In this document: positions 6,628 to 55,614 of the stretch, piece after piece
Position numbering within the stretch: the first letter of the stretch is position 1
How the letters are laid out: each line of letters begins with the position of its first letter
Source: a virus
Direction: 5' to 3' (one strand)
Virus record (IMG/VR): IMGVR_UViG_3300017684_000001
Span: 1-64,000 of that record
DNA length: 64,000 bases
Position numbers and translations under genes: made by a program
The notes under the pieces: model-generated
What the model saw: only the letters and a program-made list of their open reading frames with translations
What the model was told of the DNA's origin: nothing
Database searches by the model: none

Positions 6628-6781
6628 GAGGTACGGGTTCACTTTTTTGGGTCGAAAGTGGGTACGAGCCGGTTTTATATATATAATATTTCTTCTTCTT
6701 CTAAATTAGAAGTAGAATACAGGAGAGGATATAAAACGGACCCGTACCCACTTTTGACCCAAAAAAGTGAACCCGTACCTC
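6628..6781. repeat. long AT-rich hairpin element, copy A
   Basis: Two ~52 nt arms (GAGGTACGGGTTCACTTTTTTGGGTC...) are reverse complements flanking an AT-rich near-palindromic core. Differs at 2 of 152 positions from the reverse complement of copy C. Confidence 0.9.
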
Positions 6782-21614: not shown

Positions 21615-21705
21615 CGTGATTGGGAATTAACCTATTGACGGGAGGGCCGTCTAGGGAGTTGTCCGGAGGCCGATTTCTTTCGGATCAAAAAAAACGGCTT
21701 CGTTC

Positions 21706-21771
21706 GAAAAAGAAGCTTTTCTTTTCCGTCGGGATGTGGCTATATCTCTGGGCGGCCGGGAGACCGCACCC
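21706..21771 (+). promoter_or_regulatory. early-type promoter cassette 1
   Basis: GAAAAAGAA A-tract. GCTTTTCTTTT box at 21715-21725. CTATAT at 21740-21745. Hairpin GGGCGG-CCGGGAGA-CCGCaCCC at 21750-21771. Same architecture at four other plus-strand sites. Confidence 0.55.
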
Positions 21772-21796
21772 TTCCTCTCTCCCCTCGGAGGCTTCA

Positions 21797-22072
21797 ATGC
21801 CCTTCTCCATTCCCACCCTCGGCACTCCGGCCCGCGAGGCCCTCGGCGCCGACCTCTCGGCGGTCGCCGAAATCCTCAACCCGGCGAACGCCGCTCGCCT
21901 GCCCGTCCGCTTCGAGGCGAAGCGCAACGCGCGCCGATTCTTCAAGGCCAATCCGGCCGCGAAGGCGATCTTCGTCATCGTCATGAATTCGTCGAACGAC
22001 GAGCGCCATCTCGTGAAGATCGGCCCGCGTGGCGGGTGCACAAAAGTTTGGAATTTCGGCGACGGGCAATAA
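21797..22072 (+). CDS. moron-like small protein, opposite strand to the late genes
   Basis: Part of ORF 21620..22072. ATG 21797 (MPFSIPTLG) with GGAG 6 nt upstream. Own promoter cassette and own terminator. Confidence 0.55.
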   Translation: MPFSIPTLGTPAREALGADLSAVAEILNPANAARLPVRFEAKRNARRFFKANPAAKAIFVIVMNSSNDERHLVKIGPRGGCTKVWNFGDGQ

Positions 22073-22079
22073 GCGCCCA

Positions 22080-22108
22080 GACCTCAACAGAGGCCCTCCG
22101 GGGCCTCT
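22080..22108 (+). terminator. rho-independent terminator
   Basis: AGAGGCCC-TCCG-GGGCCTCT followed by a run of about 9 T. Confidence 0.75.
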
Positions 22109-22127
22109 TTTTTTTATGAATAACGCC

Positions 22128-28555: not shown

Positions 28556-28714
28556 TCAGCCTCCGATGGCGACGAGCGTCCCCGCGAGGACCAGGAAGCC
28601 CGGGACCGCGAGAATGAGGACGAACGGCAGAAGCGCGAGCGCGAGCAGCGCGGCGAAGAACCCGTACCGGGCGATGAACGAAGCCGCGAACAGCGCGGCG
28701 ATGAGCCAGACCAT
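28556..28714 (-). CDS. small hydrophobic membrane protein
   Basis: ORF track 28556..28744. ATG 28714 (MVWLIAALFAAS...) preceded by AGGAGG. Almost entirely hydrophobic. Confidence 0.4.
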   Translation of the reverse strand: MVWLIAALFAASFIARYGFFAALLALALLPFVLILAVPGFLVLAGTLVAIGG

Positions 28715-28724: not shown

Positions 28725-28740
28725 CCTAAAAGAAAAGCGC
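28725..28740 (-). promoter_or_regulatory. orphan copy of the early box
   Basis: Minus strand GCGCTTTTCTTTTAGG is identical over 16 nt to cassette 2 (41302-41317). It lacks the A-tract, -10-like element and hairpin, and overlaps the RBS of 28714. Confidence 0.4.
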
Positions 28741-30630: not shown

Positions 30631-30803
30631 GGGGAGGGGGAGGTACGGGTTCACTTTTTTAGGTCAATTCTGGGTACCGCCCCGTTTTAAGTATATATAT
30701 ATTCTTCTTCTTCTTAAATTAGAAGTAGAATACGTAGGAGAAGAAAAAACGGACCGGTACCCAGAATTGACCTAAAAAAGTGCACCCGTACCTCCCCCTC
30801 CCC
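30631..30803. repeat. long AT-rich hairpin element, copy B (divergent, G/C-extended stem)
   Basis: Same architecture and plus-strand orientation as copy A. The stem is extended by GGGGAGGGGGAGG / CCTCCCCCTCCCC. Four arm substitutions relative to A/C are each compensated in the other arm. Confidence 0.9.
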
Positions 30804-37869: not shown

Positions 37870-38406
37870 CTACACGTACCCCAATCGCCGAAGTTCGAGG
37901 AAGCAGCGGGTCAGCGCCTCGACGTCGACCCGTGCGCGGTGGGCTCCGGCGAACTTCTCGCCGAAGAGGTGTTCGTGCAGCGCGCCGAGCGAGAGCCGGT
38001 AGCCTTTGATCCACTCGGTCGCCTCGACCGTGCAGATCCGGCCGGCGGGCCATGGCACGACGAGGCCGCATCGTTCGAACTCGACGTCGATCATGGCGAC
38101 GTCAAAGCTCAGGTTATGGGCGACGACCTCGTCGGCGCGCTGCACGATCCTCGATAAATCGGGCGCATGAGCCGAGAACGGCTTCGCGCCCTTCAACATC
38201 TCGTCTGTGATACCAGTTATAGACGAGATCTTAGGCGAGAGCTTCTCGCCGGGGTTGGCAAAGAATTCTATCTCGTCGACCTTCCGGCCGTCTTCAAGAA
38301 GACAGCCATATAATTCTGTGACTTTAGGTTGGTGTTTTAGTGGAAGAAGACTTGCGCCAACGAGATCTGTGGTTTCCGTATCCGCGATAAATGAATAGAT
38401 ACTCAT
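37870..38406 (-). CDS. DnaQ-like 3'-5' exonuclease (DEDDh)
   Basis: ORF track 37870..38526. ATG 38406 (MSIYSFIADTETTDL = ExoI). AHNLSFDVAM = ExoII. HRARVDVEAL = ExoIII. Abuts the dnaE start. Confidence 0.8.
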   Translation of the reverse strand: MSIYSFIADTETTDLVGASLLPLKHQPKVTELYGCLLEDGRKVDEIEFFANPGEKLSPKISSITGITDEMLKGAKPFSAHAPDLSRIVQRADEVVAHNLSFDVAMIDVEFERCGLVVPWPAGRICTVEATEWIKGYRLSLGALHEHLFGEKFAGAHRARVDVEALTRCFLELRRLGYV

Positions 38407-38413
38407 TTTCGGA

Positions 38414-38863
38414 TCACCTAACCGGGAAATCATACGTCGGTTCACGCCGCGGCACGACCGGCTCGATCTCGACTTCCGGCTTCCAAGGCGGGGCCGTTTT
38501 GGGACTCTGAGCGAGCGGTCCGCCATCTTTGAAAGCCCAATCGATCGGATCTAACTTGTCGATTTTGTCTTGAGATTCCGCATCGAGTTCCCGCAGCATC
38601 GCCGCGTAGGTCGAAAGGTCGAGAAGCGAATCGTCGTGGCCGCCTGCCTCGAACTGGTTGGCGTACCGAACGATCTTCATGACGATCTGTGTGAGGACGC
38701 CGAGGCGGTTCGCGTCCTCGATGTTCCGGATCGCGAAGCCATTCGGCCGAAGCGCCATGAGCACATGGCCGAAGTTCTTATACGCGTCGCCGTAGACCTT
38801 TCCGCGCTCCTCGAAAACGTCGGCGCTCTCGCGTAGGGAATCTTGGGGTTTCATTTTCACCAT
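38414..38863 (-). CDS. all-alpha NTP pyrophosphohydrolase-like protein (uncertain)
   Basis: ORF track 38414..38908. Starts possible at 38863 or 38854. ERGKVYGDAYKNFG...KIVRYANQFEAGGHDDSLLDLSTYAAM recalls MazG-like phage proteins. Confidence 0.4.
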   Translation of the reverse strand: MVKMKPQDSLRESADVFEERGKVYGDAYKNFGHVLMALRPNGFAIRNIEDANRLGVLTQIVMKIVRYANQFEAGGHDDSLLDLSTYAAMLRELDAESQDKIDKLDPIDWAFKDGGPLAQSPKTAPPWKPEVEIEPVVPRREPTYDFPVR

Positions 38864-39333
38864 CCTGTCGCTTGAACCTGCCAACAGCAGTATCCGAGAT
38901 TGCGCCACGCCTCGACGACCTTGTCTCGGTCTTCGAGGATGAAGGCGACGTCTGGCCTTCCATCGTAAAAAAGTGATTTATCTTCTAGAAACTTATCCAG
39001 CATCGCCGGCTTAACCTCGACGTCCGGCCTCCAGTCGCCGTCCGACCGCATCAGGATCGTGTCGAAGACCGCTAGATCATGCTTGATCAGCCATTCAAGC
39101 GTCGTTTGGCGGTATCGCTCGTTCCGGCCGGTACAGGCGACGAGGAGGATCTTGTCGAGGACCGACCACCAGCAGAGGACGGAGAGAAAGAACGCCACAT
39201 CCGACCGAGGCCGATCGTCCTTGGCCGCTTGATGAAATTGATCCCATTCTTTAGCTTGTGCGAAATGATCTCTATGCGAAGAATCACAAAGAGTTCCGTC
39301 TAAATCGACCACTATGACTTTCACGAGGTACAT
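38857..39333 (-). CDS. HAD-superfamily phosphatase (nucleotidase/polynucleotide phosphatase-like)
   Basis: 158 aa. Motif I VVDLDGTLCD. Motif II-like LLVACTGR. C-terminal acidic motif ILEDRDKV. Confidence 0.6.
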   Translation of the reverse strand: MYLVKVIVVDLDGTLCDSSHRDHFAQAKEWDQFHQAAKDDRPRSDVAFFLSVLCWWSVLDKILLVACTGRNERYRQTTLEWLIKHDLAVFDTILMRSDGDWRPDVEVKPAMLDKFLEDKSLFYDGRPDVAFILEDRDKVVEAWRNLGYCCWQVQATGW

Positions 39334-39727
39334 CCTTCTGAGTTCTAGTTAAGCCTCTTAATTTATGATCTTTTTCTTCTTTTGTCATTTTATCCCAACT
39401 TAATTTTATTCCCTTAGATACGTTTAATCTCCAATTATGATTTCTTAAAACTCTTTCAATCGTATTTCTTTTCGAAGACCCAATGGAGAGATGATCTGGG
39501 TTTATGCACCATCCATTATCACAACTATGCAGGACCAATCCCTCTTTCAGATTAGGAGGACGACAAGGAATGTCTTCGCAATTAAGCCTATAGCTAAGAC
39601 GATGAGCAAACCAATTTTCTCCTCTCCACCTAAGTTTCTTTCGATTAGTAAGACGAGGAGCATCTACTTCGATGCAATCACCAACTTGTTTAAGAGGAAG
39701 AGGGAAAATAACGTTCTTAATATCCAT
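39284..39727 (-). CDS. HNH homing endonuclease
   Basis: 147 aa. AHRLSYRL...VLHSCDNGWCINPDHLSIGSSKRN is HNH_3-like. Strongly AT-rich island 39335-39760. The 3' end overlaps the HAD gene by 50 nt. Confidence 0.75.
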   Translation of the reverse strand: MDIKNVIFPLPLKQVGDCIEVDAPRLTNRKKLRWRGENWFAHRLSYRLNCEDIPCRPPNLKEGLVLHSCDNGWCINPDHLSIGSSKRNTIERVLRNHNWRLNVSKGIKLSWDKMTKEEKDHKLRGLTRTQKDVPRESHSGRFRRNSL

Positions 39728-39765
39728 TTGAACGGTCTTTCATCTCTCCACCCACAACCCGAGAG

Positions 39766-39785
39766 CCCCGGCGCGTGCGCCGGGG
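39766..39785 (-). other. GC hairpin at the upstream border of the HNH island
   Basis: CCCCGGCG-CGTG-CGCCGGGG, 8 bp stem, no U-run. Confidence 0.4.
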
Positions 39786-39803
39786 TCCGTCATCGGTTCG
39801 AAC

Positions 39804-40363: not shown

Positions 40364-41161
40364 TCACATCGCCCCTTCGGTGGAGGCCGCGCCCTGGAGA
40401 TCGGTCTCCGAGTTGTCGGCCCGAACCTCGCCGGCCTGAAGCGACACGAGGAACTTCGCCGCCTCCTCCTTCACGACCTTCCAGTCGAACCCGAACGGCT
40501 CGCCAAGCTCGGGGAGCGTCGGGCCGCGGTTGATGACCCAGTTCGCCCACTCGCCCTCGGCGTTGCTCTCGGTCCCGGTCGTGAGGTTGTAGCCGCGATA
40601 GAAGAACGGCGGCGAGAACTCCGATCCGTCCGCGCGCTTGAGGCGCTCAGAGGTAGCGATCGTCATCCACTGCCGGCTCTTCTTCAGCGCAGTCGAAGCC
40701 ATCGGAATGAAGCACTTCCGGCGGTCGGCCGTCAGGTTCAGGCCGAACCACTGCGCCGTCTCGGCGATGTAGTTTCCGTTCGGGAGGACGTCCTTCTTCC
40801 GGTCGTCCCGCTTGGTCTGCTTCATGATCTCCGGATCGGTGTGAACGGCGATCAGGCCCTTGCCCGACGAGCGCGGCGCCCATTCGAGGTAGTCCTTCCG
40901 GTAGTACACCGGCAGGAACAGAACCCCGTTCGGGAACATCTCGCCCGTACCAACGTCGACAATGGTGCCGATCTCGGCGCCGTCGATGAACTCGGCCTTC
41001 TTCTTGTTGAGTTGTGGTGAGAGCGACTGAAGGATGGTCAGTCGGGGGATGAGAACGTCGTTCGATCCGACGTTTTCGAGTCCGGCGCCTGCGAACTCTT
41101 CGAACCCATCCCCGGAGATCGCGGGGAGATTCGCGGAAGTCTTCGTGACTTCTTTAGCCAT
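40364..41161 (-). CDS. first gene of leftward operon, possible ssDNA-binding/annealing protein (uncertain)
   Basis: 265 aa. NDVLIPRLTILQSLSPQL motif and acidic C-terminus. The functional guess rests on position only. Confidence 0.5.
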   Translation of the reverse strand: MAKEVTKTSANLPAISGDGFEEFAGAGLENVGSNDVLIPRLTILQSLSPQLNKKKAEFIDGAEIGTIVDVGTGEMFPNGVLFLPVYYRKDYLEWAPRSSGKGLIAVHTDPEIMKQTKRDDRKKDVLPNGNYIAETAQWFGLNLTADRRKCFIPMASTALKKSRQWMTIATSERLKRADGSEFSPPFFYRGYNLTTGTESNAEGEWANWVINRGPTLPELGEPFGFDWKVVKEEAAKFLVSLQAGEVRADNSETDLQGAASTEGAM

Positions 41162-41222
41162 GATGTCTATTCCCTTTCGGTTCGCCGAATTCTTGAGACC
41201 GACGGCGAGACGGTGGACCCCG

Positions 41223-41261
41223 ATCTAAGCCGATCCGGCCGCAAAAGGAAAGCGATTTTTT
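41223..41261 (-). promoter_or_regulatory. leftward early-type promoter (box variant)
   Basis: Minus strand reads AAAAAATC-GCTTTCCTTTT (10/11 match to the box), T at offset 10, TTAGAT at offset 15-20. About 60 nt upstream of ATG 41161. Confidence 0.4.
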
Positions 41262-41294
41262 GTGCGTTTCGGCAGAAAAAATGTACCTCGATTT

Positions 41295-41358
41295 GAAAAG
41301 GGCGCTTTTCTTTTAGGCCAGAATGCTATCTAAAGGTGTGGGGCCGGAGACGAGGCCC
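41295..41358 (+). promoter_or_regulatory. early-type promoter cassette 2 (rightward)
   Basis: GAAAAG. Box at 41304-41314. TATCTA/TCTAAA at 41327-41334. Hairpin GGGGCC-GGAGACGA-GGCCC at 41340-41357. ATG of the XRE gene at 41376. Confidence 0.55.
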
Positions 41359-41375
41359 GCCCGGAGACAATTTTA

Positions 41376-41729
41376 ATGAACGCCAAAACCGCCCTCCCCG
41401 CCGACGCCCAGATCGGCGCGCGCGTCGCAGCGATCCGCCGGGCTCACGGCCTGTCGCAGGACGCCCTCGGCGCCGTTCTCGGCGTCTCGTTCCAGCAAAT
41501 TCAGAAATACGAGACCGGTAAGAATCGGATCTCGGCCGGCCGCCTCGTCGAGATCGCAAAGCGGTTCGGCATCTCAGTCGCACAACTTTACAGTGATGAG
41601 AGCGGCTATAACGATCCGCTCGCCCTCGAACTCGCTGCGGTGTTCGCGTCGATCCCGGACGTCGCGACCCAACGCAAGATCCTGGGCGTCGTCAAGGCGA
41701 TGGTCTCCGACGATGGGAAGGATTCGTGA
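41376..41729 (+). CDS. XRE-family HTH transcriptional regulator
   Basis: 117 aa. IGARVAAIRRAHGLSQDALGAVLGVSFQQIQKYETGKNRISAGRLVEIAKRFG is a canonical HTH_3. Confidence 0.8.
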   Translation: MNAKTALPADAQIGARVAAIRRAHGLSQDALGAVLGVSFQQIQKYETGKNRISAGRLVEIAKRFGISVAQLYSDESGYNDPLALELAAVFASIPDVATQRKILGVVKAMVSDDGKDS

Positions 41730-42070
41730 ACCGCCTCGAACCCAGGAAGCTCGGCGCGAGCCCGACCTATCGCCAGATTTGGCGCGTCGTCGATGGAGCT
41801 GTCGATCTAGCCCTTTCGGCGCATCCCGAATATATTGCCCCGGGTAAGAACCCGCGCACGGTCAGAAACTCGATCGTGAAACGCGTGGTCGGGGCGATTG
41901 TCGGATACCAGTCCGAAAAAGAGCCTCGGAGTGAAATTAAATGTTCGACCTCGCAAGAGGGCGAAGTCCGGTCCGAGTTTAGCCCGGCGGACGAAGAAGC
42001 CGGTCCCTCGGCTGTCACAGGGCCGGCCGCTGATGGCACTGCCTCCGCGTGCGATCAGCAATCCGAGTGA
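41726..42070 (+). CDS. hypothetical protein
   Basis: 114 aa. GTGA/ATGA-type overlap with the XRE gene. Confidence 0.45.
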   Translation: MNRLEPRKLGASPTYRQIWRVVDGAVDLALSAHPEYIAPGKNPRTVRNSIVKRVVGAIVGYQSEKEPRSEIKCSTSQEGEVRSEFSPADEEAGPSAVTGPAADGTASACDQQSE

Positions 42071-42117
42071 CCGTGCATCACTCGGATGGCGGGAGGGGCG
42101 GCTAGGCCCCTCCCGCC
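42062..42117 (+). other. tandem GC hairpins overlapping/after a stop codon
   Basis: TCCGAGTGA-N7-TCACTCGGA (42062-42086), then GGCGGGAGGGGC-N6-GCCCCTCCCGCC (42088-42117). No U-run. Confidence 0.6.
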
Positions 42118-42143
42118 TCTCCCAAAACCCCGGAGAATCACAG

Positions 42144-42377
42144 ATGACCAACGCGCCCCGTCCCGATCTCGTCGGCGAGCCGATAAGCCTTGAAAACATG
42201 ACCCGCGACGAGCCCAGAAAGGCGACGCCGAAGCCGCGGCCGACGAAGCCATTTCCGGACGCCGACCGGCTCGACGAGACAGAGAAGGTCGAGGTCGTCG
42301 TGACGAATTTCGATGGAGATCCTCTTTACGAAAAGGACAAGGGGAAGCTCCCGTCGAAAACGGAGGACGGACGATGA
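42144..42377 (+). CDS. hypothetical protein
   Basis: Part of ORF 41898..42377. ATG 42144 (MTNAPRPDL) with GGAG upstream. Confidence 0.45.
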   Translation: MTNAPRPDLVGEPISLENMTRDEPRKATPKPRPTKPFPDADRLDETEKVEVVVTNFDGDPLYEKDKGKLPSKTEDGR

Positions 42378-42463
42378 GCCTCGGAAACCTCGCAGTCATC
42401 GTGTCGTTGGCATCGCTCGCGCTGCTGATCTTCGACGAAATCTCGCGCGGATTTGGGGAGTGA
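42374..42463 (+). CDS. 29-aa single-TM peptide (candidate)
   Basis: Hand-translated MSLGNLAVIVSLASLALLIFDEISRGFGE. ATGA overlap with the upstream gene. Confidence 0.3.
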   Translation: MSLGNLAVIVSLASLALLIFDEISRGFGE

Positions 42464-42468
42464 TCGGG

Positions 42469-42624
42469 ATGCCCTTCGTCTTCGCCGCGCTGATCGTCTC
42501 CGGGTTCGTCCTGGTCCTCGCCTTGCTCGGGGTCCGCGCGATGAACGCCGTGCTATTCGTGCTCATGGCGATGCCGTTCGCCTACGTCCTCGCGGTCCTC
42601 GCGCGGATGGTCTTGGCTCAATGA
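42469..42624 (+). CDS. 51-aa two-TM peptide (candidate)
   Basis: MPFVFAALIVSGFVLVLALLGVRAMNAVLFVLMAMPFAYVLAVLARMVLAQ (tail of ORF 42313..42624). Confidence 0.4.
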   Translation: MPFVFAALIVSGFVLVLALLGVRAMNAVLFVLMAMPFAYVLAVLARMVLAQ

Positions 42625-42791
42625 TCACCTACCTCGCTGTCTCGCTCGGGCTCCTCGCAGCGCTCTGCGTGACGGCGTCGATCGAGAGCCGGGCCGAACA
42701 GCGTGCGCGGCGTAACCTCGACCGGCTCCGGCATCTCGCCGGGGTCGATGGACATGGGGCCGAGCGGTATGGCCCAAGGATTCTGCTATGA
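42621..42791 (+). CDS. 56-aa N-terminal-TM protein (candidate)
   Basis: MITYLAVSLGLLAALCVTASIESRAEQRARRNL... (tail of ORF 42453..42791). ATGA overlap. Confidence 0.4.
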   Translation: MITYLAVSLGLLAALCVTASIESRAEQRARRNLDRLRHLAGVDGHGAERYGPRILL

Positions 42792-43042
42792 TTGGCAGAG
42801 GGGAAATCCGCCGGCAGGGCGCGGGAGGCGTGATGCAGTGGGATTATGACATGGCCGGAGCGCCAAGAGACGGGACGCCGATCCTAGTATTTCGGGACAA
42901 CGGATGCGGCTTTGACTACTATGCCGTGTGGTGGAGCAGGCATGATGCCGAGTATCCATGGCGCGAGGAAAGCGGCAACGCTTATCCGGCCGACCGCTTC
43001 GACGGTTGGACCTCGATTAAGCCGCCAGCCGCCACGGATTGA
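42788..43042 (+). CDS. hypothetical protein
   Basis: 84 aa ORF. Alternative start M16 at 42833. Confidence 0.45.
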   Translation: MIGRGEIRRQGAGGVMQWDYDMAGAPRDGTPILVFRDNGCGFDYYAVWWSRHDAEYPWREESGNAYPADRFDGWTSIKPPAATD

Positions 43043-43047
43043 GGGCT

Positions 43048-43166
43048 AGAATGTGGGGCAACGGCATCCGCCATTTTACCCCACATTTCCGAGGCGGCGA
43101 CAGAGCGTGCAGGGCCATCGGGCGGCATCCGTCCAGCCCGCGCAAATCGTGGGGCAGAATGTGGGG
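43048..43166. repeat. AGAATGTGGGG repeat cluster in a non-coding gap
   Basis: Direct copies at 43048-43058 and 43156-43166. Inverted copy CCCCACATTTC at 43079-43089. Degenerate AAATCGTGGGG at 43144-43154. GGCATCCG occurs twice (43063, 43123). Confidence 0.7.
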
Positions 43167-43223
43167 TGAGGCCGTTTTTCGGCCCTCCGCGACGCCCTGA
43201 AATGACGGCAGAGGGGGCAGGGT

Positions 43224-43433
43224 TTGACGATGCAGAACGAGAGACTTGAACCCCGCGAGGGCTGGCGGATCAACCCGCTCCGGCGGTGTTACGAGCGAGG
43301 CCCGGAGGAGGAGCCAATCCGGGTTTACCCCATCGCAGGCGAGTTCGTGGCGTCGGTTTTTGGTTGCTGGATTGAGGGTGTCTGGTCGACGTTCGAAGAG
43401 GCCACTGCGGCGGCCGAGAAGGAAGCCAGTTAG
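43224..43433 (+). CDS. hypothetical protein
   Basis: 69 aa ORF. Confidence 0.45.
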   Translation: MTMQNERLEPREGWRINPLRRCYERGPEEEPIRVYPIAGEFVASVFGCWIEGVWSTFEEATAAAEKEAS

Positions 43434-43450
43434 GTTCCGGGGGCAGAAAC

Positions 43451-43619
43451 CATGTCGGTTCAAACGAACGTTTGGGACAGAAATTGCGAATGGATGAAAG
43501 ACAAGGATAAGTCGTGCTGCAATCCTATAGGCTGCCACTGTAAGGAAATATCGAAGTTGCGATCGCGCGTTCGCGATCTCGAAAAGAAGGTTTCGCGGGC
43601 TCGCGCTATTCTTGAGTGA
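43451..43619 (+). pseudogene. small Cys-rich/coiled-coil ORF interrupted by a frame change (or non-coding)
   Basis: Frame 0: MSVQTNVWDRNCEWMKEQG-stop at 43508. The +1 frame continues KNKDKSCCNPIGCHCKEISKLRSRVRDLEKKVSRARAILE-stop at 43617. Lower-GC 215 nt gap. Confidence 0.25.
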
Positions 43620-43648
43620 GCGGAAGGGGGGGGGGCAGGAGCTGGGTC

Positions 43649-43819
43649 ATGGATTATCGCGCGATCCTACAACGATACATGAGACTTATTATCAGCGAGG
43701 AGGGAACAGCTTTCCTTGAGTTTGCGGATCCTGACCTTTTTATAGAGGCAGAAGTACTGGATCTTGAAGCCATAGCGCGAGAGATTTTTAACGACCGTGC
43801 GCGGGCAAAGCCTGAGTAG
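43649..43819 (+). CDS. hypothetical acidic protein
   Basis: Part of ORF 43616..43819. ATG 43649 (MDYRAILQ) preceded by a G10 tract and AGGAG. Confidence 0.45.
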   Translation: MDYRAILQRYMRLIISEEGTAFLEFADPDLFIEAEVLDLEAIAREIFNDRARAKPE

Positions 43820-43851
43820 CGCGGAGGGGGGGGGCATCCACTTGTTCTCTA

Positions 43852-43916
43852 ATAAAACGCTTTTCTTTTACGAGAAAATGGCGCATACCTCCGTCGGGGC
43901 CGGAAACGAGAGCCCC
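43852..43916 (+). promoter_or_regulatory. early-type promoter cassette 3
   Basis: ATAAAAC. Box at 43859-43869. CATACC at 43884-43889. Hairpin GGGGC-CGGAAACGAGA-GCCCC at 43896-43916. GGAG RBS and ATG at 43932. Confidence 0.55.
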
Positions 43917-43931
43917 GACGGAGAGCCCGCG

Positions 43932-45419
43932 ATGACCCCGACCGCCCAGCAGACCGCCTTCCTCGAAGCCCTGACCTCGACCCGCTCGAACCTCGCCCTC
44001 GTCGCCCGCGCCGGTTGCGGGAAGACCTCGACGATCCTACTCGGGGTCGACGCCGTCCGTCGGGCCAATCCGCGCTCCGAGGTCCTGGTCTGCGCGTTCA
44101 ACAAGGCGATCGCCGACGAGGTCTCCGAGAAGCTCAAGAAGGCCGGCCACGCCGACTGGCGCGCCGTCCAGGCCTCGACCCTCCACGGCCTCGGCTTCGG
44201 CCTCCTGAAATATGCCTTCAAGCCAAAGGTCGACGAGAAGAAGGTCCCGATGATCGTCGACGGCGCGAACAAGGAGATTTTCGCGACCTACCGCTCGCAG
44301 ATCATCGCGCTCGTCAAGTACGCGAAGCAGGCCGGCTTCGGTTTCTTCCCGGACCTACCGATCAACGACGATCGCCCCTGGTTCGATCTCGCCGACCACT
44401 TCGACGTGAACGGCTTCGAGGAGACCGACGACGCGACTGACGTCGTCGCCGCGGCCCGGTTCGTCTACAAGGCATCGCTCGCCCAGACCGACGTCGTCGA
44501 CTTCGACGACATGATCCTGTTCCCGCTCGTGAAGAACCTCGTCGTCAAGTTCGGGAAAGACGTCGTCTTCCTCGACGAGGCCCAGGATCTCTCCCGCGCC
44601 AGACAGGCGCTCGCCCGGAAGTTTGTGAAGCGCGGCGGCCGGATGGTCGTCGTCGGCGACGACCGACAGGCGATCTACGGCTTTTCGGGCGCTGATGCCG
44701 CGGCGCTCCCGAACCTGATCGAGAGCCTCGATGCGACCGTCCTCCCGCTATCTGTGACTTGGCGTTGTCCGAAAGCCGTCGTCGAAATCGCCCGGACGCT
44801 CGTCCGAGATATCGAGGCGGCCCCCGGTGCGCCCGAGGGTAAGGTTTCCCGGGTTGGTAAGCTCCCGGGCGATCTTGGACCCGGCGACGCGATCCTCTGC
44901 CGGAATACCGCACCGCTCGTGAAGACCGCATACGCTCTGATCCGCTCGGGTAAGCCGGCGAAGGTCGAGGGCCGGGCAATCGGCGACGGCCTGAAGGCGC
45001 TCGCGTCGCGCTGGAAGGTCTCGACCGTCGACGCGCTTCTCCGGAAGCTCGACGACTACCGCGAACGCGAGATCCAGAAGGCGATGGCGAAGGGGAACGA
45101 GGCGAAAGCCGAAGAGGTCGAGGATCGGGTCGGGACCCTGGTCGAGGTCTGTGCGGCCTGCCTCGCTGCTGGGAAGACGAGCGTCGCCGACGTCAGATCG
45201 TTCATCGATGCCTTGTTCGCCGATGACGCGAAGGGAGCGATCGTCCTCGCGACCTATCACCGCTCGAAAGGCCGTGAGTGGCCACGGGTTTACCTGTTCG
45301 AGCATGCCCTACGGTGCCCGTCGAAAGCGGCTAAGAAGGCTTGGCAGTTCGAGCAAGAGGCGAACCTCGCCTACGTCGCCTTTACCCGCGCTCAATCCGA
45401 ACTGACGTTCGTCGGTTGA
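43932..45419 (+). CDS. UvrD/Rep-type SF1 DNA helicase
   Basis: ORF track 43797..45419. ATG 43932 chosen downstream of the cassette. Motifs ARAGCGKTST, VVFLDEAQDL, VGDDRQAIYGFSGAD, TYHRSKGREW. Confidence 0.85.
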   Translation: MTPTAQQTAFLEALTSTRSNLALVARAGCGKTSTILLGVDAVRRANPRSEVLVCAFNKAIADEVSEKLKKAGHADWRAVQASTLHGLGFGLLKYAFKPKVDEKKVPMIVDGANKEIFATYRSQIIALVKYAKQAGFGFFPDLPINDDRPWFDLADHFDVNGFEETDDATDVVAAARFVYKASLAQTDVVDFDDMILFPLVKNLVVKFGKDVVFLDEAQDLSRARQALARKFVKRGGRMVVVGDDRQAIYGFSGADAAALPNLIESLDATVLPLSVTWRCPKAVVEIARTLVRDIEAAPGAPEGKVSRVGKLPGDLGPGDAILCRNTAPLVKTAYALIRSGKPAKVEGRAIGDGLKALASRWKVSTVDALLRKLDDYREREIQKAMAKGNEAKAEEVEDRVGTLVEVCAACLAAGKTSVADVRSFIDALFADDAKGAIVLATYHRSKGREWPRVYLFEHALRCPSKAAKKAWQFEQEANLAYVAFTRAQSELTFVG

Positions 45420-45430
45420 AGATCAAACCG

Positions 45431-45450
45431 CCGGGGCCTTCGGGCCTCGG
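45431..45450 (+). other. UUCG-loop GC hairpin after the helicase gene
   Basis: CCGGGGCC-TTCG-GGCCTCGG, 8 bp including one G-T pair, no U-run. Confidence 0.45.
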
Positions 45451-45468
45451 CTATCAGAGGATAATCCA

Positions 45469-45777
45469 ATGAACGAAAACGACCAAAACGGAGAACGAGC
45501 TTTGCTCGAAATCTTCTCCGACCCGGCTACGCTGATGATGATCGAAGGAGGGGTTCTGGCTGAGAAAGAGTTTTTTCTCGCCCGCAATTACGTAACCGAG
45601 GCAATCGCCTCGTTCCAAAGCGATCCGGCCGACAGCGACTTTCAACGCGGCTATCTCGCGGCCCTCGAAGTCGTCGGGAAAGAGGCGCTCGGGATGGACA
45701 TCGACCTAGGCCCGAAGGATTCCGAGATCGAGATCCGTGAACGTCGGGCCATGTTTCGCCTCGTAGAAAAGGATTGA
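45469..45777 (+). CDS. hypothetical protein
   Basis: 102 aa ORF. Confidence 0.5.
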   Translation: MNENDQNGERALLEIFSDPATLMMIEGGVLAEKEFFLARNYVTEAIASFQSDPADSDFQRGYLAALEVVGKEALGMDIDLGPKDSEIEIRERRAMFRLVEKD

Positions 45778-46238
45778 CCGACATGTCTTTGAACATCCCG
45801 AACCTCGACAAGCTGATCGCGCATCTAGAGGCGCAGCCGCCGGAGCGGATCAATATGGCGTGGGCCTTCTTCAAGAAAACGCCTCTTTACGGGGAATGCG
45901 GCTGTATCATCGCGCACGCTAACGAAGTATTCCCAGGAAATCACATATCACCCATCTTCGGCGACAAACGAATTAGTGATGCTCTATTCATGCCTCCTCA
46001 CTACTATGATGAGGATGAGATTTTACAGAAGCGTTACCCCGCCCACCGCGTCATCGCCACCCTCAAGCGCCTCCGCGACCGGTTCTTGGCGACGGGCGAG
46101 ATCGTCGTAGATTGGGGAGCTGAGCCGGGATCCGAGCCTGCGCAGCCCTGGGCCGCCCCGCGCGCCGTCGAGATCACGCCGCCGGCCCTGCCCGAGACGC
46201 TGACCCGTCTCCTCACCGCCCAGCGTGAGGAGGCCTGA
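45774..46238 (+). CDS. hypothetical protein, Cys-motif paralogue 1
   Basis: 154 aa. ...INMAWAFF...YGECGCIIAHA ... LRDRFLATGE. Shares motifs with 51755..52276. Confidence 0.5.
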   Translation: MTDMSLNIPNLDKLIAHLEAQPPERINMAWAFFKKTPLYGECGCIIAHANEVFPGNHISPIFGDKRISDALFMPPHYYDEDEILQKRYPAHRVIATLKRLRDRFLATGEIVVDWGAEPGSEPAQPWAAPRAVEITPPALPETLTRLLTAQREEA

Positions 46239-46241
46239 GCC

Positions 46242-46910
46242 ATGGCCGAGAACGTCCATTGCGCGGCCGAGTCCGCATCCGAGAACATGGCGCTCCTGAA
46301 GCGCGAGAACGCCGAGTTGCGCGCCTACCTCAAGGCGTTCTGCGTGGCGACGATCGACCCCGAAGACCTCGGCCGGGACGTGGGCGCGCACGAGGCCAAC
46401 CCGTTCATCACCTACGCCTTCCAACTCGTCGAGGAGGGCGACCCCCAGGCCGATCGTGCCATCTCAGGCGGCCAGGTTCGGCGCGCCATGGAGCTGGTCG
46501 GGTTCGACAAGCTCAAGATCCAGCCGTCCGACCAGACCATCGCCGACGAGCTGACCGAGGCGCGCGATCTGCGGCGCGCGGTCAAGGACTTCTCTGCGAG
46601 CGTCACCATCCCCGGCCCCGGCGACGAGGAGCGCGACTTCTGGCTGATGGCGGCCGAGCAGCACGGCTTCCAGGAGGCGGCCGACGGCTCGCTCTATACC
46701 GCCGACCCGGACGAGGTGCTGAAGCTCATGGCTGCGGCCCGGGAGCAGGGGCGCAAGGACGTGCTCGACGCGCTCGCGACGGAAGCTGCCCGTGACGACG
46801 TGAAGTGCCATTGCGTCAGCGTGTTCGGGCCGAACCCGGAATGCGGGGCCTGCGGCGGATCGGGATGCGTCTCGGAGACCACTGTCAGCACCTCCGGAGC
46901 CGCCCGATGA
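46242..46910 (+). CDS. hypothetical protein with C-terminal Cys cluster
   Basis: 222 aa. ...KCHCVSVFGPNPECGACGGSGC. Confidence 0.5.
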   Translation: MAENVHCAAESASENMALLKRENAELRAYLKAFCVATIDPEDLGRDVGAHEANPFITYAFQLVEEGDPQADRAISGGQVRRAMELVGFDKLKIQPSDQTIADELTEARDLRRAVKDFSASVTIPGPGDEERDFWLMAAEQHGFQEAADGSLYTADPDEVLKLMAAAREQGRKDVLDALATEAARDDVKCHCVSVFGPNPECGACGGSGCVSETTVSTSGAAR

Positions 46911-47308
46911 CGGACCTCACCCTTGAGGAGAAGGTTTCCGGCGCCGAACAGCGCGCACGCGAGCTCGCGGCCGAGAAGCACTTCTACGCCGCCGCCCAGC
47001 CGTTCTTTCCGCTCGGATTTTCGGTCAACTACCGCAATCCAGGCCACTGGGACGTGATGGCGGAACAGTGCCCTGGCAGGCTCTCGGCTTGGCAGCACGC
47101 CAACCCAGGCGGCCGGGCGAGCGGCGGAGATGGCGGCATAGAGCGCGCCTTCCGCATCCGCGGCGAGCCGGGCCGCGTGACCATGCTCGACGAACGCTGG
47201 GATCCGAACCGGCCGCACCCACGCGAGACCCTGACCTTCCGCAGCGTCACCGGCGCGATGCTCTGGATCGTCGAAGAGCTGATGCAGGAACCGGAGTCCG
47301 CCCGATGA
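46907..47308 (+). CDS. hypothetical protein
   Basis: Part of ORF 46805..47308. ATG 46907 forms an ATGA overlap. Confidence 0.45.
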   Translation: MTDLTLEEKVSGAEQRARELAAEKHFYAAAQPFFPLGFSVNYRNPGHWDVMAEQCPGRLSAWQHANPGGRASGGDGGIERAFRIRGEPGRVTMLDERWDPNRPHPRETLTFRSVTGAMLWIVEELMQEPESAR

Positions 47309-48009
47309 CGAATCCCATCACCCCACCCACCACGGACCTGGCCGCACGCTTCGAGGCCAAGCGCGAGGAGTGCTGGAAACTCGCGGCCATCGGCGAAGGC
47401 AGAAACGGCGTCGACTTTTGGGCTGGCGGTGCATCCGCCTTCGCCGAAGCCAGGGACATGGCCCGCGCAGGTGCCGCCGGGGGAGCGGATGGCTTCGTGC
47501 TGGTGCCGCGCGAGCCGACGCCGAAGATGGTCGCATCGACCTGGAATGACCATGTCGACGCGAACGGCGGGATCGAGAGCCAGAACGCGCGGAACAAGCG
47601 GATCTACCGCGCCATGATCGCCGCCGCCGCCCCCGCCGCTCCGCCCCCTCCCGCCCAGCAAGTGGACAAGCAACGGCGCGACGAAGACGGCTTCGTCTGC
47701 GAGTACGACCAGGGCTGCAAGCCAGAGACCGACACCTACACGATCTGCTGGGATGGCGGCGCGCGCTGGCTCATCGTGGACCGTCACGGCCTGATCACCA
47801 TAGGCCAGTCCCCTGCTGACGACCGCCCGGTTCAGCAGACGACGTGGCAAGCCCTCATGTCGCCCCCTCCCGCCCAGCAAGGATCCTCGCCCCCTCCACT
47901 CACCGCAGAGCGGGTGGATCTGCCACCTCCGCTCACCTCGTTGAAAGCGATGGTGCGGGAGCGCCTGTCCGAGATCAAAGAAACGACCTCCAGCGATGCA
48001 GATCGATGA
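47305..48009 (+). CDS. hypothetical protein (Pro/Ala-rich linkers)
   Basis: Part of ORF 47068..48009. ATG 47305 forms an ATGA overlap. Confidence 0.45.
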   Translation: MTNPITPPTTDLAARFEAKREECWKLAAIGEGRNGVDFWAGGASAFAEARDMARAGAAGGADGFVLVPREPTPKMVASTWNDHVDANGGIESQNARNKRIYRAMIAAAAPAAPPPPAQQVDKQRRDEDGFVCEYDQGCKPETDTYTICWDGGARWLIVDRHGLITIGQSPADDRPVQQTTWQALMSPPPAQQGSSPPPLTAERVDLPPPLTSLKAMVRERLSEIKETTSSDADR

Positions 48010-48012
48010 GAC

Positions 48013-48753
48013 ATGGGGGATTGGCTCTGGGCCCAGTTGATGGACTGGTGCAAGAAGCGCGGCGTCGCGCCCGCAAACTACGACGACCTGTTCGACATCG
48101 TCAGGGGTATCCGCCACCTCGTCCCCGCATCTCTCCCAGCAGGAACGGGATCGGCCGATGAGGGGACGGGACTGGGCGCGCCGGCTGTTGCGCAGACTGG
48201 ATGGCACCGCACGGCGACAGACGGAAAGCCCCGATACAATGGCGAGTGGGGCGAAAGATATCTTCTGACGTGGAGCGAAAGGACAGCTACGGCCGACATC
48301 AACTGTATCGACGGGGAATGGGAGCACGGCCAGGCGATCGCCCTGACCGGCATGGACTGGTGGTGCTGGCTCGACGCGCCGCCGTATTCTGACGCTGAGG
48401 GCGATAGCGCTGCTGCCGAAGGTCAGGCTCCCGGCATTTTCGTCGAAGGCTACCTGAACGACCTCTGCCTTGCGGGGAAGCATCCTGCGCAACAGCAAAC
48501 GCCCACCTCCCCTCAGGAGGTTGAGGTCAAGTCGCCCACCCCCGATCCTGTAGGGGAGGCAAAGGCGCTGCTGGAGGGGCTACCGAAAAATCGCACACCG
48601 GAGCAGCACATCGCGTCTTTCCGCAGGGCCTCGCTCGGCATGACGAGAGTCGAGAATGCTGACAAGTGCCTCGCCAAGGCCGACGCCATCGAAGCCGCTC
48701 TAGTCACCCTCCATGCGAGCCAGGATCAGGCCGGGGAGGTGCGCCGTGGATAA
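48013..48753 (+). CDS. hypothetical protein
   Basis: 246 aa ORF. Confidence 0.45.
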   Translation: MGDWLWAQLMDWCKKRGVAPANYDDLFDIVRGIRHLVPASLPAGTGSADEGTGLGAPAVAQTGWHRTATDGKPRYNGEWGERYLLTWSERTATADINCIDGEWEHGQAIALTGMDWWCWLDAPPYSDAEGDSAAAEGQAPGIFVEGYLNDLCLAGKHPAQQQTPTSPQEVEVKSPTPDPVGEAKALLEGLPKNRTPEQHIASFRRASLGMTRVENADKCLAKADAIEAALVTLHASQDQAGEVRRG

Positions 48754-49171
48754 CCAGCGCATCGCCACTGCCGTGCTAGGCTCTAGCGAAATCGACATGG
48801 AGAAGGTCTGGGACGCCGTTCGCGGCTCACCTGCGGACCTTCGTGCCAAGGGCTGCACCGTCGCCGTGCATAACGACTACCGGCTCGGCGGGAAGGCAAT
48901 GACCTTCTGGTTGCTGACCTACGATACCGGCAAGCAGGACACCTTTGGCCGGCCGATTACCCGCTCGTTCAAGGGCGAGGGCGAGACCGACGCGGAGGCG
49001 CTGGACAAGGTGAGAGCCGAATTCGCTGCCGTCACCGACAACCACAAGCACGCTCCGATGTGCCCGGCCAATCACTACCACGGCGCCCGCGCACCTACTG
49101 GTTCTTGCACCTGTGGAGCCATCCGTATCGGCGTGTTCATGTACGGAAAGCGGGAGAACACCTGTGGCTGA
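48746..49171 (+). CDS. hypothetical protein
   Basis: ORF track 48713..49171. GTG 48746 with GGGGAGG 6 nt upstream, overlapping the previous stop. Confidence 0.45.
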   Translation: MDNQRIATAVLGSSEIDMEKVWDAVRGSPADLRAKGCTVAVHNDYRLGGKAMTFWLLTYDTGKQDTFGRPITRSFKGEGETDAEALDKVRAEFAAVTDNHKHAPMCPANHYHGARAPTGSCTCGAIRIGVFMYGKRENTCG

Positions 49172-49997
49172 ACCCGCCCCCGTTACTGCCGATCAGGAAG
49201 AGGCCCTGCGGGAGGACGAAGCTGAGTTCCGACAGCCAGCGCCGCCCCCGATCCCAGTCCGCAAGCGCTACTACATCACCGAGTGCGAGCACTGCGCATG
49301 GGTCGGCTCATCCGAGCAGTGCGGAAGCTACGACGACAGCATGTCCTGCCCGGTATGCTGCTCGGAGATGTGCGGCGACGAACCGGATGAGGCTGAGATC
49401 GCCAAGCATGGCGAGGCCGTCATGCAGCGCATCATCGCCACCGAAGCCAAGGTCGACCAGCTCGCCTCCGAACTGCGCGAGGCACGGGAAGAGCGGCACG
49501 GCATGATCGACGACTACGCGGCGCTCGTCATGAGAAAGGTTGAGCAGAGACTTCGCGCGGAAGCCGCCGAAGCCAACCTGATTGACCTCGCCAAGATGTA
49601 CGGCGAGGCGTGCGGCAGACTTGCTACGGCGCGATACGAGCGGTTCCGTACAGACCGTCGCATCCGGCTTCAGCGGTTCGCCCTCCGAGAGGCCAACAAG
49701 TACACCGACAAGGGCACCGGAAGCCGAGCCTACGTCCACCTGTTTCAGTACGCGCAGAAGATGTCTCGGCGCGCTCACTCGGCCGCCGCCGAGATCGCCT
49801 CTCTGCGCTCGGCTACCGGCGACGGGGGCGAGGCGAAGGAACCCCACGACTACGAGGTGATCGGCACGACCTACGACGGCGTGAAGGTGCTTCGCGCGAT
49901 CAGCGAGCCGACGAACTTCACCCGGGAGGAGATTCGGGCCGCCGTGGAGGCCGCCCTTCAGCCCCGCTCCACGAAGATCGAGGGGGCGGGCGAATAA
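49164..49997 (+). CDS. zinc-ribbon plus coiled-coil protein
   Basis: ORF track 49113..49997. GTG 49164 with GGGAG upstream. CEHCAW...CPVCC motif, then a long helical region. Confidence 0.45.
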   Translation: MAEPAPVTADQEEALREDEAEFRQPAPPPIPVRKRYYITECEHCAWVGSSEQCGSYDDSMSCPVCCSEMCGDEPDEAEIAKHGEAVMQRIIATEAKVDQLASELREAREERHGMIDDYAALVMRKVEQRLRAEAAEANLIDLAKMYGEACGRLATARYERFRTDRRIRLQRFALREANKYTDKGTGSRAYVHLFQYAQKMSRRAHSAAAEIASLRSATGDGGEAKEPHDYEVIGTTYDGVKVLRAISEPTNFTREEIRAAVEAALQPRSTKIEGAGE

Positions 49998-50011
49998 AAA
50001 CGTATCTCGTC

Positions 50012-50078
50012 TTTAAAAACGCTTTTCTTTTTAATCAATCTGGCGTCTTATGGCGGCGGGGCCGGAGACGATCGCCCC
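50012..50078 (+). promoter_or_regulatory. early-type promoter cassette 4
   Basis: TTTAAAAAC. Box at 50021-50031. TCTTAT at 50046-50051. Hairpin GGGGC-CGGAGACGATC-GCCCC at 50058-50078. ATG at 50104. Confidence 0.55.
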
Positions 50079-50103
50079 ATGCTTAAACCGAGGAACGAAA
50101 GCC

Positions 50104-50910
50104 ATGTCAAAAACCGGAATTCAAGGGATCTCAACCGGGCGATCGGACACGTTCCGGATCAGCCTTGACGATCTCTATGTTCGAGAAGGATGGAACGCGC
50201 GCGACGTCGACTTCAACCCGAATGATGAAGACGATCTGGCTCTCGCTCAGTCGATCGCTGAAGTCGGCGTCAAGGAGACGATGACGGCGATCTGGGAGGA
50301 CGGGCGGGCCTACATCACGAACGGACATCGTCGCCGGGCCGCCGCTCTCTACGCCCGCGACGTCCTAAAAGCCGAGATCAAGTCCGTCCCGGTTCAGACC
50401 GAGCCGCGGTATTCGAGTGAGGCCGAACACGTCCTCTCTCAGATCGTCCGGAACGCCGGCAAACCGCTTACCCCATTCGAGAAGGGCAAGGTGTTCAAGA
50501 AACTTCTCGACCTCGGCTGGAGCGAGACGGAAATCGGTCAGAAGACCGGGATCACCCGTACGCGCGTCGTGCAACTTCTCGAAGTCCAATCGGCCCCGGA
50601 GCCCGTCAAGGCGATGGTTCGATCGGGTGAGGTCTCAGCCGATCTTGCCATGAAGACGATCCGAGCAGCCGACGGCGACACCGGAAAGGCCGTCGCCGAT
50701 CTCGCAGGCGCGATCGGCACGGCGAAGAAGGCCGGGAAGACCCGAGCCACGGCCAAGCACGTCGAGGGCGGCGAGCCTCGATCATCTCTCAAGAAGACCG
50801 CCGGGGAATTGCTCCGCGTTTCCGAGGTTGAGATCTCAGGCGACGACGTGGTCACGCTGACCATGCCGAAAAGCTACTTCGAGCAATTCAAGAAGGCCGC
50901 TGGGTACTGA
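50104..50910 (+). CDS. ParB/Srx-fold N-terminal domain protein with HTH
   Basis: ORF track 50050..50910. ATG 50104 (MSKTGIQG). ITNGHRRRAAAL is a ParB GxxRxxA-type box. GWSETEIGQKTGITRTRVVQLLEV is an HTH. Confidence 0.75.
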   Translation: MSKTGIQGISTGRSDTFRISLDDLYVREGWNARDVDFNPNDEDDLALAQSIAEVGVKETMTAIWEDGRAYITNGHRRRAAALYARDVLKAEIKSVPVQTEPRYSSEAEHVLSQIVRNAGKPLTPFEKGKVFKKLLDLGWSETEIGQKTGITRTRVVQLLEVQSAPEPVKAMVRSGEVSADLAMKTIRAADGDTGKAVADLAGAIGTAKKAGKTRATAKHVEGGEPRSSLKKTAGELLRVSEVEISGDDVVTLTMPKSYFEQFKKAAGY

Positions 50911-50911
50911 A

Positions 50912-51496: not shown

Positions 51497-51514
51497 TGTG
51501 AAAAGGAAAACGAC

Positions 51515-55609: not shown

Positions 55610-55614
55610 GAACC

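Follow-up and report, generated by a model that had tools for sequence, protein, structure and literature searches.

A T-rich box in the -35 region of a probable promoter cassette repeated in an uncultured DnaE-encoding phage and its relatives

We analysed a 64-kb stretch of viral DNA with a G+C content of 62% (positions 1 to 64,000 of the IMG/VR record IMGVR_UViG_3300017684_000001, referred to here as the window), in which the T-rich 11-mer GCTTTTCTTTT, hereafter the box, recurs in the gaps ahead of genes. Very probably, the box supplies the -35 region of a strong promoter cassette of modular build, which stands before each early or non-structural unit, in this phage and in its relatives. Repeated promoter motifs are an already-known kind of feature in phages, and when found genome-wide they are the usual first reading of a phage transcription programme. 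The combination of this box with a downstream TGGCG element appears to be undescribed, as far as literature searches show. In the present case the cassette supplies a ready map of early units in an uncultured phage clade, with six cassettes in the window and eight in a closer relative, the contig L170.

Recurrence of the box and its cassette

Six exact matches to GCTTTTCTTTT occur in the window, against 0.01 expected from dinucleotide shuffles, and allowing up to one mismatch gives seven sites against 0.49 expected, the additional site being the variant GCTTTCCTTTT. All seven copies lie in intergenic gaps and none in a called gene; as around 14.5% of the window is uncalled, the probability of this arrangement by chance is approximately 1e-6. 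A preliminary description of this DNA had listed five exact copies on the plus strand, and these were recovered with starts at 21715, 41304, 43859, 50021 and 55236. The one-mismatch scan likewise returned the 10/11 variant that had been placed on the minus strand, at 41243-41253. A sixth exact copy, on the minus strand at 28728-28738, had been missed. It had also been considered that the box might prove equally common inside genes, which is not so.

The surroundings of the boxes are as the preliminary description had them. A-tracts precede the five plus-strand copies (GAAAAAGAA, GAAAAG, (A)ATAAAAC, TTTAAAAAC and GAAAAAGAC, respectively), a T is found 10 nt past every box, and hexamers stand at offsets 15-20 (CTATAT, TCTAAA, CATACC, TCTTAT and TCTACT). 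The cassettes sit in gaps, each oriented with its downstream gene. Two further parts had gone unrecorded, namely a TGGCG-like pentamer that starts at the conserved T, and a second A/T tract some 20 nt further upstream. This larger cassette is common to the five plus-strand copies and the minus-strand variant. The earlier statement that it heads every early transcription unit holds in part: its reading as a promoter is supported, but ‘every’ is too strong, since the block at 52742 encoding a dCMP deaminase and an SNF2 helicase has no cassette.

In a 43-position scan with a position weight matrix (PWM) derived from the relatives, the five plus-strand sites score 24-52 bits and the minus-strand variant 11.4 bits. 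The maximum in shuffled sequence averages around 7 bits and reaches 15.8 at its highest, so the variant is supported by its ortholog in L170 and not by its PWM score. At a threshold of 18 bits the cassette is present in 13 phage loci, window included. For 25 of the 27 sites at this threshold, an open reading frame (ORF) starts on the same strand 25-66 nt after the hexamer (median 41), where a start was taken as a Shine-Dalgarno sequence and start codon followed by an ORF of at least 35 aa. The corresponding figure for random positions is 6.7% (P ~1e-27).

Cassette layout and conservation in related phages

The layout was established by aligning the window sites with those of the relatives, and is numbered such that the first base of the -10 hexamer is -12. 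A distal A/T tract (-65 to -60) and a proximal one (-45 to -41, with A in 30-37 of 55 sites) are followed by the box at -37 to -27, in which -37 is G or C and -36 to -27 is CTTTTCTTTT. A 9-nt spacer (-26 to -18) with a conserved C at -22 then leads to the TGGCG-like element (-17 to -13) and to a cATAAt-type -10 hexamer (-12 to -7). Past -7 comes the start region, G+C-rich and in many cases bearing a 5' stem-loop, and then a Shine-Dalgarno sequence and start codon. The consensus comprises 55 distinct sites collected at a 14-bit threshold from the window, the relatives, L170 and metagenome contigs, and across these the box positions are conserved at 80-100%.

The two halves of the cassette differ in how closely they approach a canonical sigma-70 promoter. 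The -10 half is near TATAAT, with a consensus of cATAAt and a mean match of 3.6/6 over the 55 sites (A at -11 in 44, T at -10 in 43, A at -9 in 48 and T at -7 in 29). It also fits the alphaproteobacterial pattern nAtnnn/CTATAT, and exact CTATAT is found at 21740 and, in L170, at 1794 and 2114. The box, on the other hand, has CTT..C without the G. As had been noted earlier, it does not qualify as a -35 element of the TTGACA type: 50 of the 55 sites agree with that hexamer at 3/6 positions at best, and only two sites have G at -33. Promoters of the TTGACA/TATAAT type are themselves absent from the 17-kb early region (41000-58000), where 2.7 would be expected, and show no excess elsewhere in the window.

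The window phage is metagenomic and has a length of around 65.7 kb (ENA contig k141_369820; it was also assembled from SRR6988717). Its minus strand carries structural and packaging genes (portal, TerL and DUF2213), and a replication block that encodes a DnaE-type polymerase, a DUF5906 primase-helicase, an exonuclease and Pam3 gp33/gp34-like proteins. On the plus strand, the region from 41.3 to 57.3 kb encodes an XRE regulator, a UvrD-like helicase, a ParB-like protein, the dCMP deaminase, the SNF2 helicase and MazG, and from 57.3 kb the genes return to the minus strand. There are no tRNAs in the window. No close cultured phage was found, the best DnaE match being 37% identical. A near-identity search of a phage collection using the 41-52 kb region returned nothing, and the consensus 66-mer gave chance matches only.

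The related set comprises 53 viral contigs obtained by a DnaE protein search (45-62% identity). L170, a 68-kb Joint Genome Institute (JGI) contig, is a closer relative that was found through its homologue of the window protein g50912. It has seven exact boxes on its early strand, which precede UvrD-like, ParB-like, g50912-homolog and small-ORF operons, and on its other strand the same T-to-C variant heads a gp34-like operon. When the UvrD-like, ParB-like, small-ORF and leftward promoters are compared between the window and L170, the box is unchanged whereas the 9-nt spacer and the upstream flanks have diverged. The first ORFs past the cassettes form orthologous groups across phages. A strict 19-base pattern gave five matches in the viral collection, at least four of them on two contigs of the related set, and the reversed control pattern ATANGCGGTNNNNCNNNNTTTTCTTTTC gave none; within this collection, the cassette is clade-specific.

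Elsewhere in this clade of DnaE phages, the repeated motifs are different ones. In L024, GAAGCCTGCAACATGGAGAG is found directly before start codons six times between 14334 and 17302 on the plus strand, with a seventh copy at 19223 that lacks GGAGAG, and these repeats resemble start-associated sequences. L015 contains GGAACTTGGAACTTGGACCGG four times, at 4978 and 15864 (plus strand) and at 7049 and 17935 (minus strand), and this motif resembles the -35 element of extracytoplasmic function (ECF) sigma factors.

Recognition of the box

The preliminary description had found no box-reading factor in the window, and scans with Pfam and PHROGs agree. The scans took in the predicted proteins other than those of the structural block at 2-26 kb (part of this block was scanned for RNA polymerase domains) and detected no sigma factor, RNA polymerase, MotA or AsiA. 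Promoters of the T7, N4 or phiKZ type would be accompanied by a phage RNA polymerase, and T4-type middle promoters by MotA and AsiA, of which divergent analogues may have escaped the scans. The gene for g50912 (194 aa) is enriched in cassette-bearing loci (4/12, versus 1/40), although this comparison of gene presence with cassette presence is confounded by partial loci and shared ancestry. An AlphaFold model of the protein (pLDDT, the predicted local distance difference test score, of 70.6) has a small helix/strand C-terminal domain, and a fold search against the PDB gave no match with an E value below 0.8.

In the mechanism that we propose, the two phased A/T tracts near -65 to -60 and -45 to -41 would act like UP elements, as sites for the C-terminal domain of the alpha subunit, and so recruit the host RNA polymerase. 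Judging from sequence fit only, the polymerase with its primary sigma factor would open the DNA at the cATAAt-type -10 hexamer, while the invariant CTTTTCTTTT and the TGGCG element would give specificity beyond canonical sigma region 4. Because all recognisable early units carry the box, and because no sigma, polymerase or activator gene was seen, the reader of the box most probably exists before infection, and it would most likely be host-encoded. Transcripts are predicted to begin around 6-9 nt past the hexamer, in the G+C-rich discriminator. About half of them would start with a stable stem-loop that probably shields the 5' end. The leftward replication operon would use the weaker, conserved variant GCTTTCCTTTT.

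A plain sigma-70 reading fails to explain the invariance of the box, since G is present at -33 in so few of the sites. This ten-base T-rich element is invariant across phages whose polymerases are 50-60% identical, and never drifts toward TTG, so something beyond ordinary sigma region 4 must constrain it. Changes toward TTG should strengthen an ordinary promoter, yet they are absent, and we argue that the T residues themselves are therefore required. Should the reader be a host component, the cassette would represent a new bacterial promoter class and a host-prediction marker for these phages; should it be a phage protein, the result would be a new system of regulation whose operator is short and portable. 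In either case the cassette, at around 90 bp, offers a compact candidate for a strong promoter in high-G+C hosts, probably alphaproteobacterial ones.

Comparison with known systems shows partial likeness in each case. Alphaproteobacterial sigma-70 promoters share the character of the -10 half, with dominant A at -11 and T at -10 and a lax first position, and CTTTTC agrees with CTTGAC in 4/6 bases at a spacing of 17-18. They differ from the cassette in the third -35 base, where G is replaced by T in 53 of the 55 sites; the cassette further has ten near-invariant positions, which extend far past a -35 hexamer, and the extra TGGCG. The sigma-70 promoter of S. meliloti is CTTGAC-N17-CTATAT (PMC2873474). 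Promoters of G. oxydans follow ttGnnn/nAtnnn, with a lax -10 hexamer and with the -35 G as the best-conserved base (PMC5756330). A de novo motif list for S. meliloti does not include the T-rich box, and searches of the literature for the box sequence in phage promoters or in Rhodobacter found nothing relevant.

Strong promoters of the E. coli rrnB P1 type have an UP element, the consensus of which is said to have been given by Estrem et al. in 1998 as AAAWWTWTTTT...AAAA. The cassette likewise has A/T tracts upstream of the -35 region, such as GAAAATAATTT in relatives, and its two tracts lie around two helical turns apart. UP elements are A/T-rich stretches at about -40 to -60 to which the C-terminal domain of the alpha subunit binds; the tracts of the cassette fit in sequence, and their contact with that subunit is putative. 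It also shares a G+C-rich discriminator with stringently controlled promoters. Unlike in rrnB P1, the distal tract is around 10 bp further upstream, and some relatives have T-tracts. Middle promoters of phage T4, with a MotA box in place of a -35 element, offer another parallel, as they too combine an asymmetric, non-TTGACA box near -30 with an ordinary -10 before many genes. However, the box sequences are unrelated and no MotA or AsiA homologue was found with Pfam or PHROGs; moreover, since the box precedes all recognisable early units, an activator made by the phage could not start the cascade, as distinct from the situation in T4. The stoperators of mycobacteriophage L5 and its like are similarly short, asymmetric, near-invariant, intergenic and oriented with transcription, and they overlap the promoter -35. 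In contrast to these, all copies of the box except that at 28728 have a complete -10, UP-like tracts and a leader, there are seven copies rather than 20-30, and neither an integrase nor an immunity repressor is evident.

As a search for cellular use of the element, 185,579 reference genomes were scanned with the pattern CTTTTCTTTT-N4-C-N4-TGGCG-NN-TA. This returned 53 stretches, most of which look random. Six matches in Rhodobacteraceae/Paracoccaceae occupy a single locus, being intergenic, upstream of rpsT-dnaA-dnaN and co-oriented with these genes; they represent three lineages, and their spacers and flanks differ. In Verrucomicrobiia, the pattern is found upstream of and co-oriented with lpdA in three variants with differing spacers, and one further match precedes lon, a heat-shock gene. 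We take the rpsT and lpdA matches as hints of a host-encoded reader, but they could be due to chance. In a fuller version of this idea, which we consider possible though doubtful, CTTTTCTTTT and TGGCG would be recognised by a so far undescribed determinant of promoter specificity of the cellular RNA polymerase. Housekeeping promoters (rpsT, lpdA) would use this element, and uncultured phages of a widespread clade that encodes DnaE would have copied it at near-consensus strength, so as to capture the polymerase of the host when they infect. The determinant might be a factor of the host, or else a kind of sigma or alpha subunit contact not recognised so far. An alphaproteobacterial host is weakly supported for the window phage, whose endonuclease has exclusively alphaproteobacterial best plasmid matches.

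At the rpsT locus we also see a 28-nt block, CACATGCGCGTGGGCCCGCTTAAGGCAT, that is identical in six Rhodobacteraceae (L060, L063, L067, L079, L094 and L096) and lies upstream of rpsT, directly downstream of its putative -10 hexamer. Neither this block nor the six rpsT loci as a whole gave a match in Rfam. The block may be an S20 leader or autoregulatory element.

Two rival explanations accept the cassettes as promoters and differ over what binds the box. It may be bound by a phage-encoded protein, whether a monomeric repressor of stoperator type, a shut-off factor or a MotA-like activator, with sigma-70 using only the -10 and the UP-like tracts. Like operator or activator boxes that overlap a -35 element, the box has an asymmetric sequence that follows the direction of transcription, and its conservation far exceeds that of the -10 half; the lack of drift toward TTG (2/55) suggests selection for something besides sigma region 4. 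Candidate DNA-binding proteins include XRE (41376-41729), the ParB-helix-turn-helix (HTH) protein and the g50912 protein, together with a small HTH-like ORF at 28780 (weak, E = 0.07) next to the orphan box, and other sub-lineages of the clade bear different repeated motifs. These candidates are nevertheless not conserved in the cassette-bearing relatives, as XRE is absent from L170 and g50912 occurs in 4/12 loci, and the g50912 fold search gave nothing. No MotA/AsiA family matches were obtained. If the box stands before every visible early unit, that of the activator included, there can be no requirement for an activator. The pattern is also present at conserved cellular promoters. We regard a phage-encoded reader as rather unlikely. 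Unlikely by a further degree is that, in place of the primary sigma factor, an alternative one of the host (group 3) or a cryptic phage sigma reads the cassette. The -10 element of sigma-28 is GCCGATAA, and the extended -10 GC(G/C)(G/C)ATAA resembles it, for example in GCCGATAG (L012) and GGCGGATA (L022); GCGCATAA agrees with it at 6/8 positions. The 11 nt from box end to octamer are as in TAAAGTTT-N11-GCCGATAA, the -35 is non-canonical, and lon is a heat-shock gene. Yet the box resembles neither the TAAA of sigma-28 nor the CTTGAA of sigma-32. In a comparison with the FliA pattern TAAA(GTTT)-N11-GCCGATAA, TAAA is absent and TTTCTTTT agrees with TAAAGTTT at only 4/8 positions. For sigma-54 (TGGCAC-N5-TTGC, with GG and GC 10 bp apart), the GG-N10-GC spacing is absent, as TGGCG is followed by cATAA and there is no GC at that place. 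The hexamer consensus of the 55 sites is ordinary for sigma-70, rpsT and lpdA are housekeeping genes, and Pfam and PHROGs scans found no sigma domain among the window proteins outside the 2-26 kb block; it would also be unusual for a lytic phage to rely on a stress or flagellar sigma for all its early genes. Readings as sigma-54, sigma-28, sigma-32 or sigma-B-like promoters were judged by eye and were rejected or left as weak resemblances.

A third explanation, which we consider highly improbable, denies the box a promoter role and makes it the T-tail of weak terminators or insulators, or a pyrimidine tract that enhances translation at the RNA level. It is true that the A-tract, G/C and T-tract can pair weakly, that the same 10-mer forms the T-tail of a hairpin terminator in several cellular matches, and that the copy at 28728 stands directly before a Shine-Dalgarno sequence. 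However, the six window cassettes have no G+C-rich hairpin before the box, and a terminator scan calls none of the boxes. Relatives have upstream T-tracts in place of A-tracts, which means that the pairing is not conserved. Termination would account for neither the constant spacer of 9 nt ahead of TGGCG and the -10 nor the 25-66 nt distance to starts, and at 60-80 nt from start codons the box is too distant for a ribosome-binding enhancer. The arrangement with the A-tract as the true -10 and the box as the transcript start was rejected, as AAAAAG lacks the T and A pattern and relatives have T-tracts.

Several observations weigh against the box as a -35-region promoter element read by a host factor. 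We infer the transcript start site, the ‘early’ timing and the strength of the cassettes; the box matches TTGACA at 3/6 positions and lacks the conserved alphaproteobacterial G at -33. The orphan box at 28728 is below the PWM threshold and has neither a -10 part nor the rest of the cassette. The leader hairpin was rejected as a universal part, having a mean z of -0.63 and being absent at 55236 and in L010 and L022. Searches with hidden Markov models (HMMs) may overlook a phage sigma factor that has diverged, or a factor that is injected. With respect to the cellular matches, we estimate that around 1-4 random ones are to be expected over all high-G+C genomes, T-rich runs concentrate between genes, several matches are terminator T-tails, and the cellular sites share with the phage cassette only those positions that the pattern demanded. 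Finally, the cultured roseophage R5C lacks the cassette.

Individual cassettes and other features of the window

The first cassette (21687-21745, plus strand; 31.0 bits) has a distal A8 at 21687-21694, a proximal A-tract at 21706-21714, the box at 21715-21725, TGTGG at 21735-21739 and CTATAT at 21740-21745. Its G+C-rich leader GGGCGGCCGGGAGACCGCACCC (21750-21771) forms a weak stem-loop and is followed by the Shine-Dalgarno sequence GGAGG and the ATG of a 91-aa ORF (21797-22072). An intrinsic terminator lies at 22089-22116 on the same strand, with an 8-bp stem containing six G-C pairs (22089-22108) and then T8. Cassette, ORF and terminator thus make up a self-contained plus-strand unit (21715-22116) within the minus-strand late operon.

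The variant cassette (41223-41262, minus strand; 11.4 bits) heads the leftward gp34-like/DnaE replication operon, and comprises an A-tract at 41254-41262, the box GCTTTCCTTTT at 41243-41253, TCGGC at 41229-41233 and TTAGAT at 41223-41228. Divergent from it is the cassette of the XRE block (41274-41334, plus strand; 24.3 bits), with distal AGAAAAAAT at 41274-41282, proximal GAAAAG at 41295-41300, the box at 41304-41314, TGCTA at 41324-41328 and TCTAAA at 41329-41334. The XRE leader forms a stem-loop, GGGGCCGGAGACGAGGCCC (41340-41358, plus strand), ahead of the Shine-Dalgarno sequence GGAGAC and the ATG at 41376 (XRE, PF01381). A T6/A6 palindrome, ATTTTTTGTGC-N6-GCAGAAAAAAT (41255-41282), lies exactly between the two divergent cassettes and has a T6...A8 counterpart in L170, at around 1741-1794. 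It is possible that this is an operator for the XRE regulator, or it may simply be made up of the A-tracts of both promoters.

The cassette of the UvrD-like helicase (43851-43889, plus strand; 41.8 bits) consists of AATAAAAC at 43851-43858, the box at 43859-43869, TGGCG at 43879-43883 and CATACC at 43884-43889, and orthologous cassettes precede UvrD in L170 and L031. Its leader stem-loop CGGGGCCGGAAACGAGAGCCCCG (43895-43917, plus strand; z = -2.0, -15.7 kcal/mol) is followed by GGAG and the ATG at 43932, which is the start of UvrD, not the GTG at 43797. The best-scoring cassette in the window, at 51.9 bits, is that of the ParB-like gene (49992-50051, plus strand), with distal GAATAAAAAC at 49992-50001, proximal TTTAAAAAC at 50012-50020, the box at 50021-50031, TGGCG at 50041-50045 and TCTTAT at 50046-50051; its ortholog is at 6135 in L170. 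The leader stem-loop is GGGGCCGGAGACGATCGCCCC (50058-50078, plus strand). The ATG of the longest ORF (50050) falls within the -10 hexamer; translation of the ParB-like gene probably begins at the in-frame ATG at 50104, after the Shine-Dalgarno sequence GAGGAA. The last cassette, before the small-ORF/MazG block (55207-55266, plus strand; 34.4 bits), has distal GATAAAAT at 55207-55214, proximal GAAAAAGAC at 55227-55235, the box at 55236-55246, TAGGG at 55256-55260 and TCTACT at 55261-55266, with a GTG start at 55296. The ortholog in L170 (14611) precedes the same ORF of 35-37 aa. A leader motif, GGCCGGAGACGA, occurs with 0-1 mismatches at 41342, 43898 and 50060, where it forms the stem-loop at the predicted 5' end. 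The leader of the 21715 cassette is an indel variant of this motif that folds weakly.

The orphan box at 28728-28738 (minus strand) is immediately followed by AGGAGG and by the start codon (ATG) of a membrane ORF of 52 aa (28556-28714), and is not a promoter of the cassette type. The box and its flanks are kept in the 96-97% identical relatives L171 and L172, one of which has an upstream insertion. Possible roles are a U-rich enhancer of translation or a stand-alone site for the factor that reads the box, or it may be a remnant.

We also see a near-perfect palindromic element of around 150 nt in three copies (6628-6780, 30639-30790 and 52566-52710), which lie between genes in three different gene modules. 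Its arms read GAGGTACGGGTTCACTTTTTTGGGTCAAAAGTGGGTACGG... and its AT-rich centre is TTCTTCTTCT..TTAGAAGTAGAATAC. The centre at 30702 scores 14.7 bits with the cassette PWM, which is within the shuffled range. The element could be a mobile element akin to miniature inverted-repeat transposable elements (MITEs), a bidirectional terminator or a promoter. A gene for a homing endonuclease of the His-Me/HNH type (39284-39727, minus strand; PF05551, E = 7e-07) lies between PNKP-phosphatase-like and gp33-like genes, within an AT-rich island at around 38200-39800 with 51-56% G+C, and looks like a recently acquired selfish element. In the lysis/late region, a 79-aa protein (61383-61622, minus strand) has an Acb2/Tad1 hairpin domain (PF24729, E = 1.4e-18) and is a probable sponge for cyclic-nucleotide immune signals, acting against Thoeris or the cyclic oligonucleotide-based antiphage signalling system (CBASS). 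Lastly, a collagen-like protein with Gly-X-Y repeats (57358-58362, minus strand; PF01391, E = 3e-31) is probably a fibre, and its gene is separated from the end of the plus-strand block by a convergent terminator at 57290-57269 on the minus strand.

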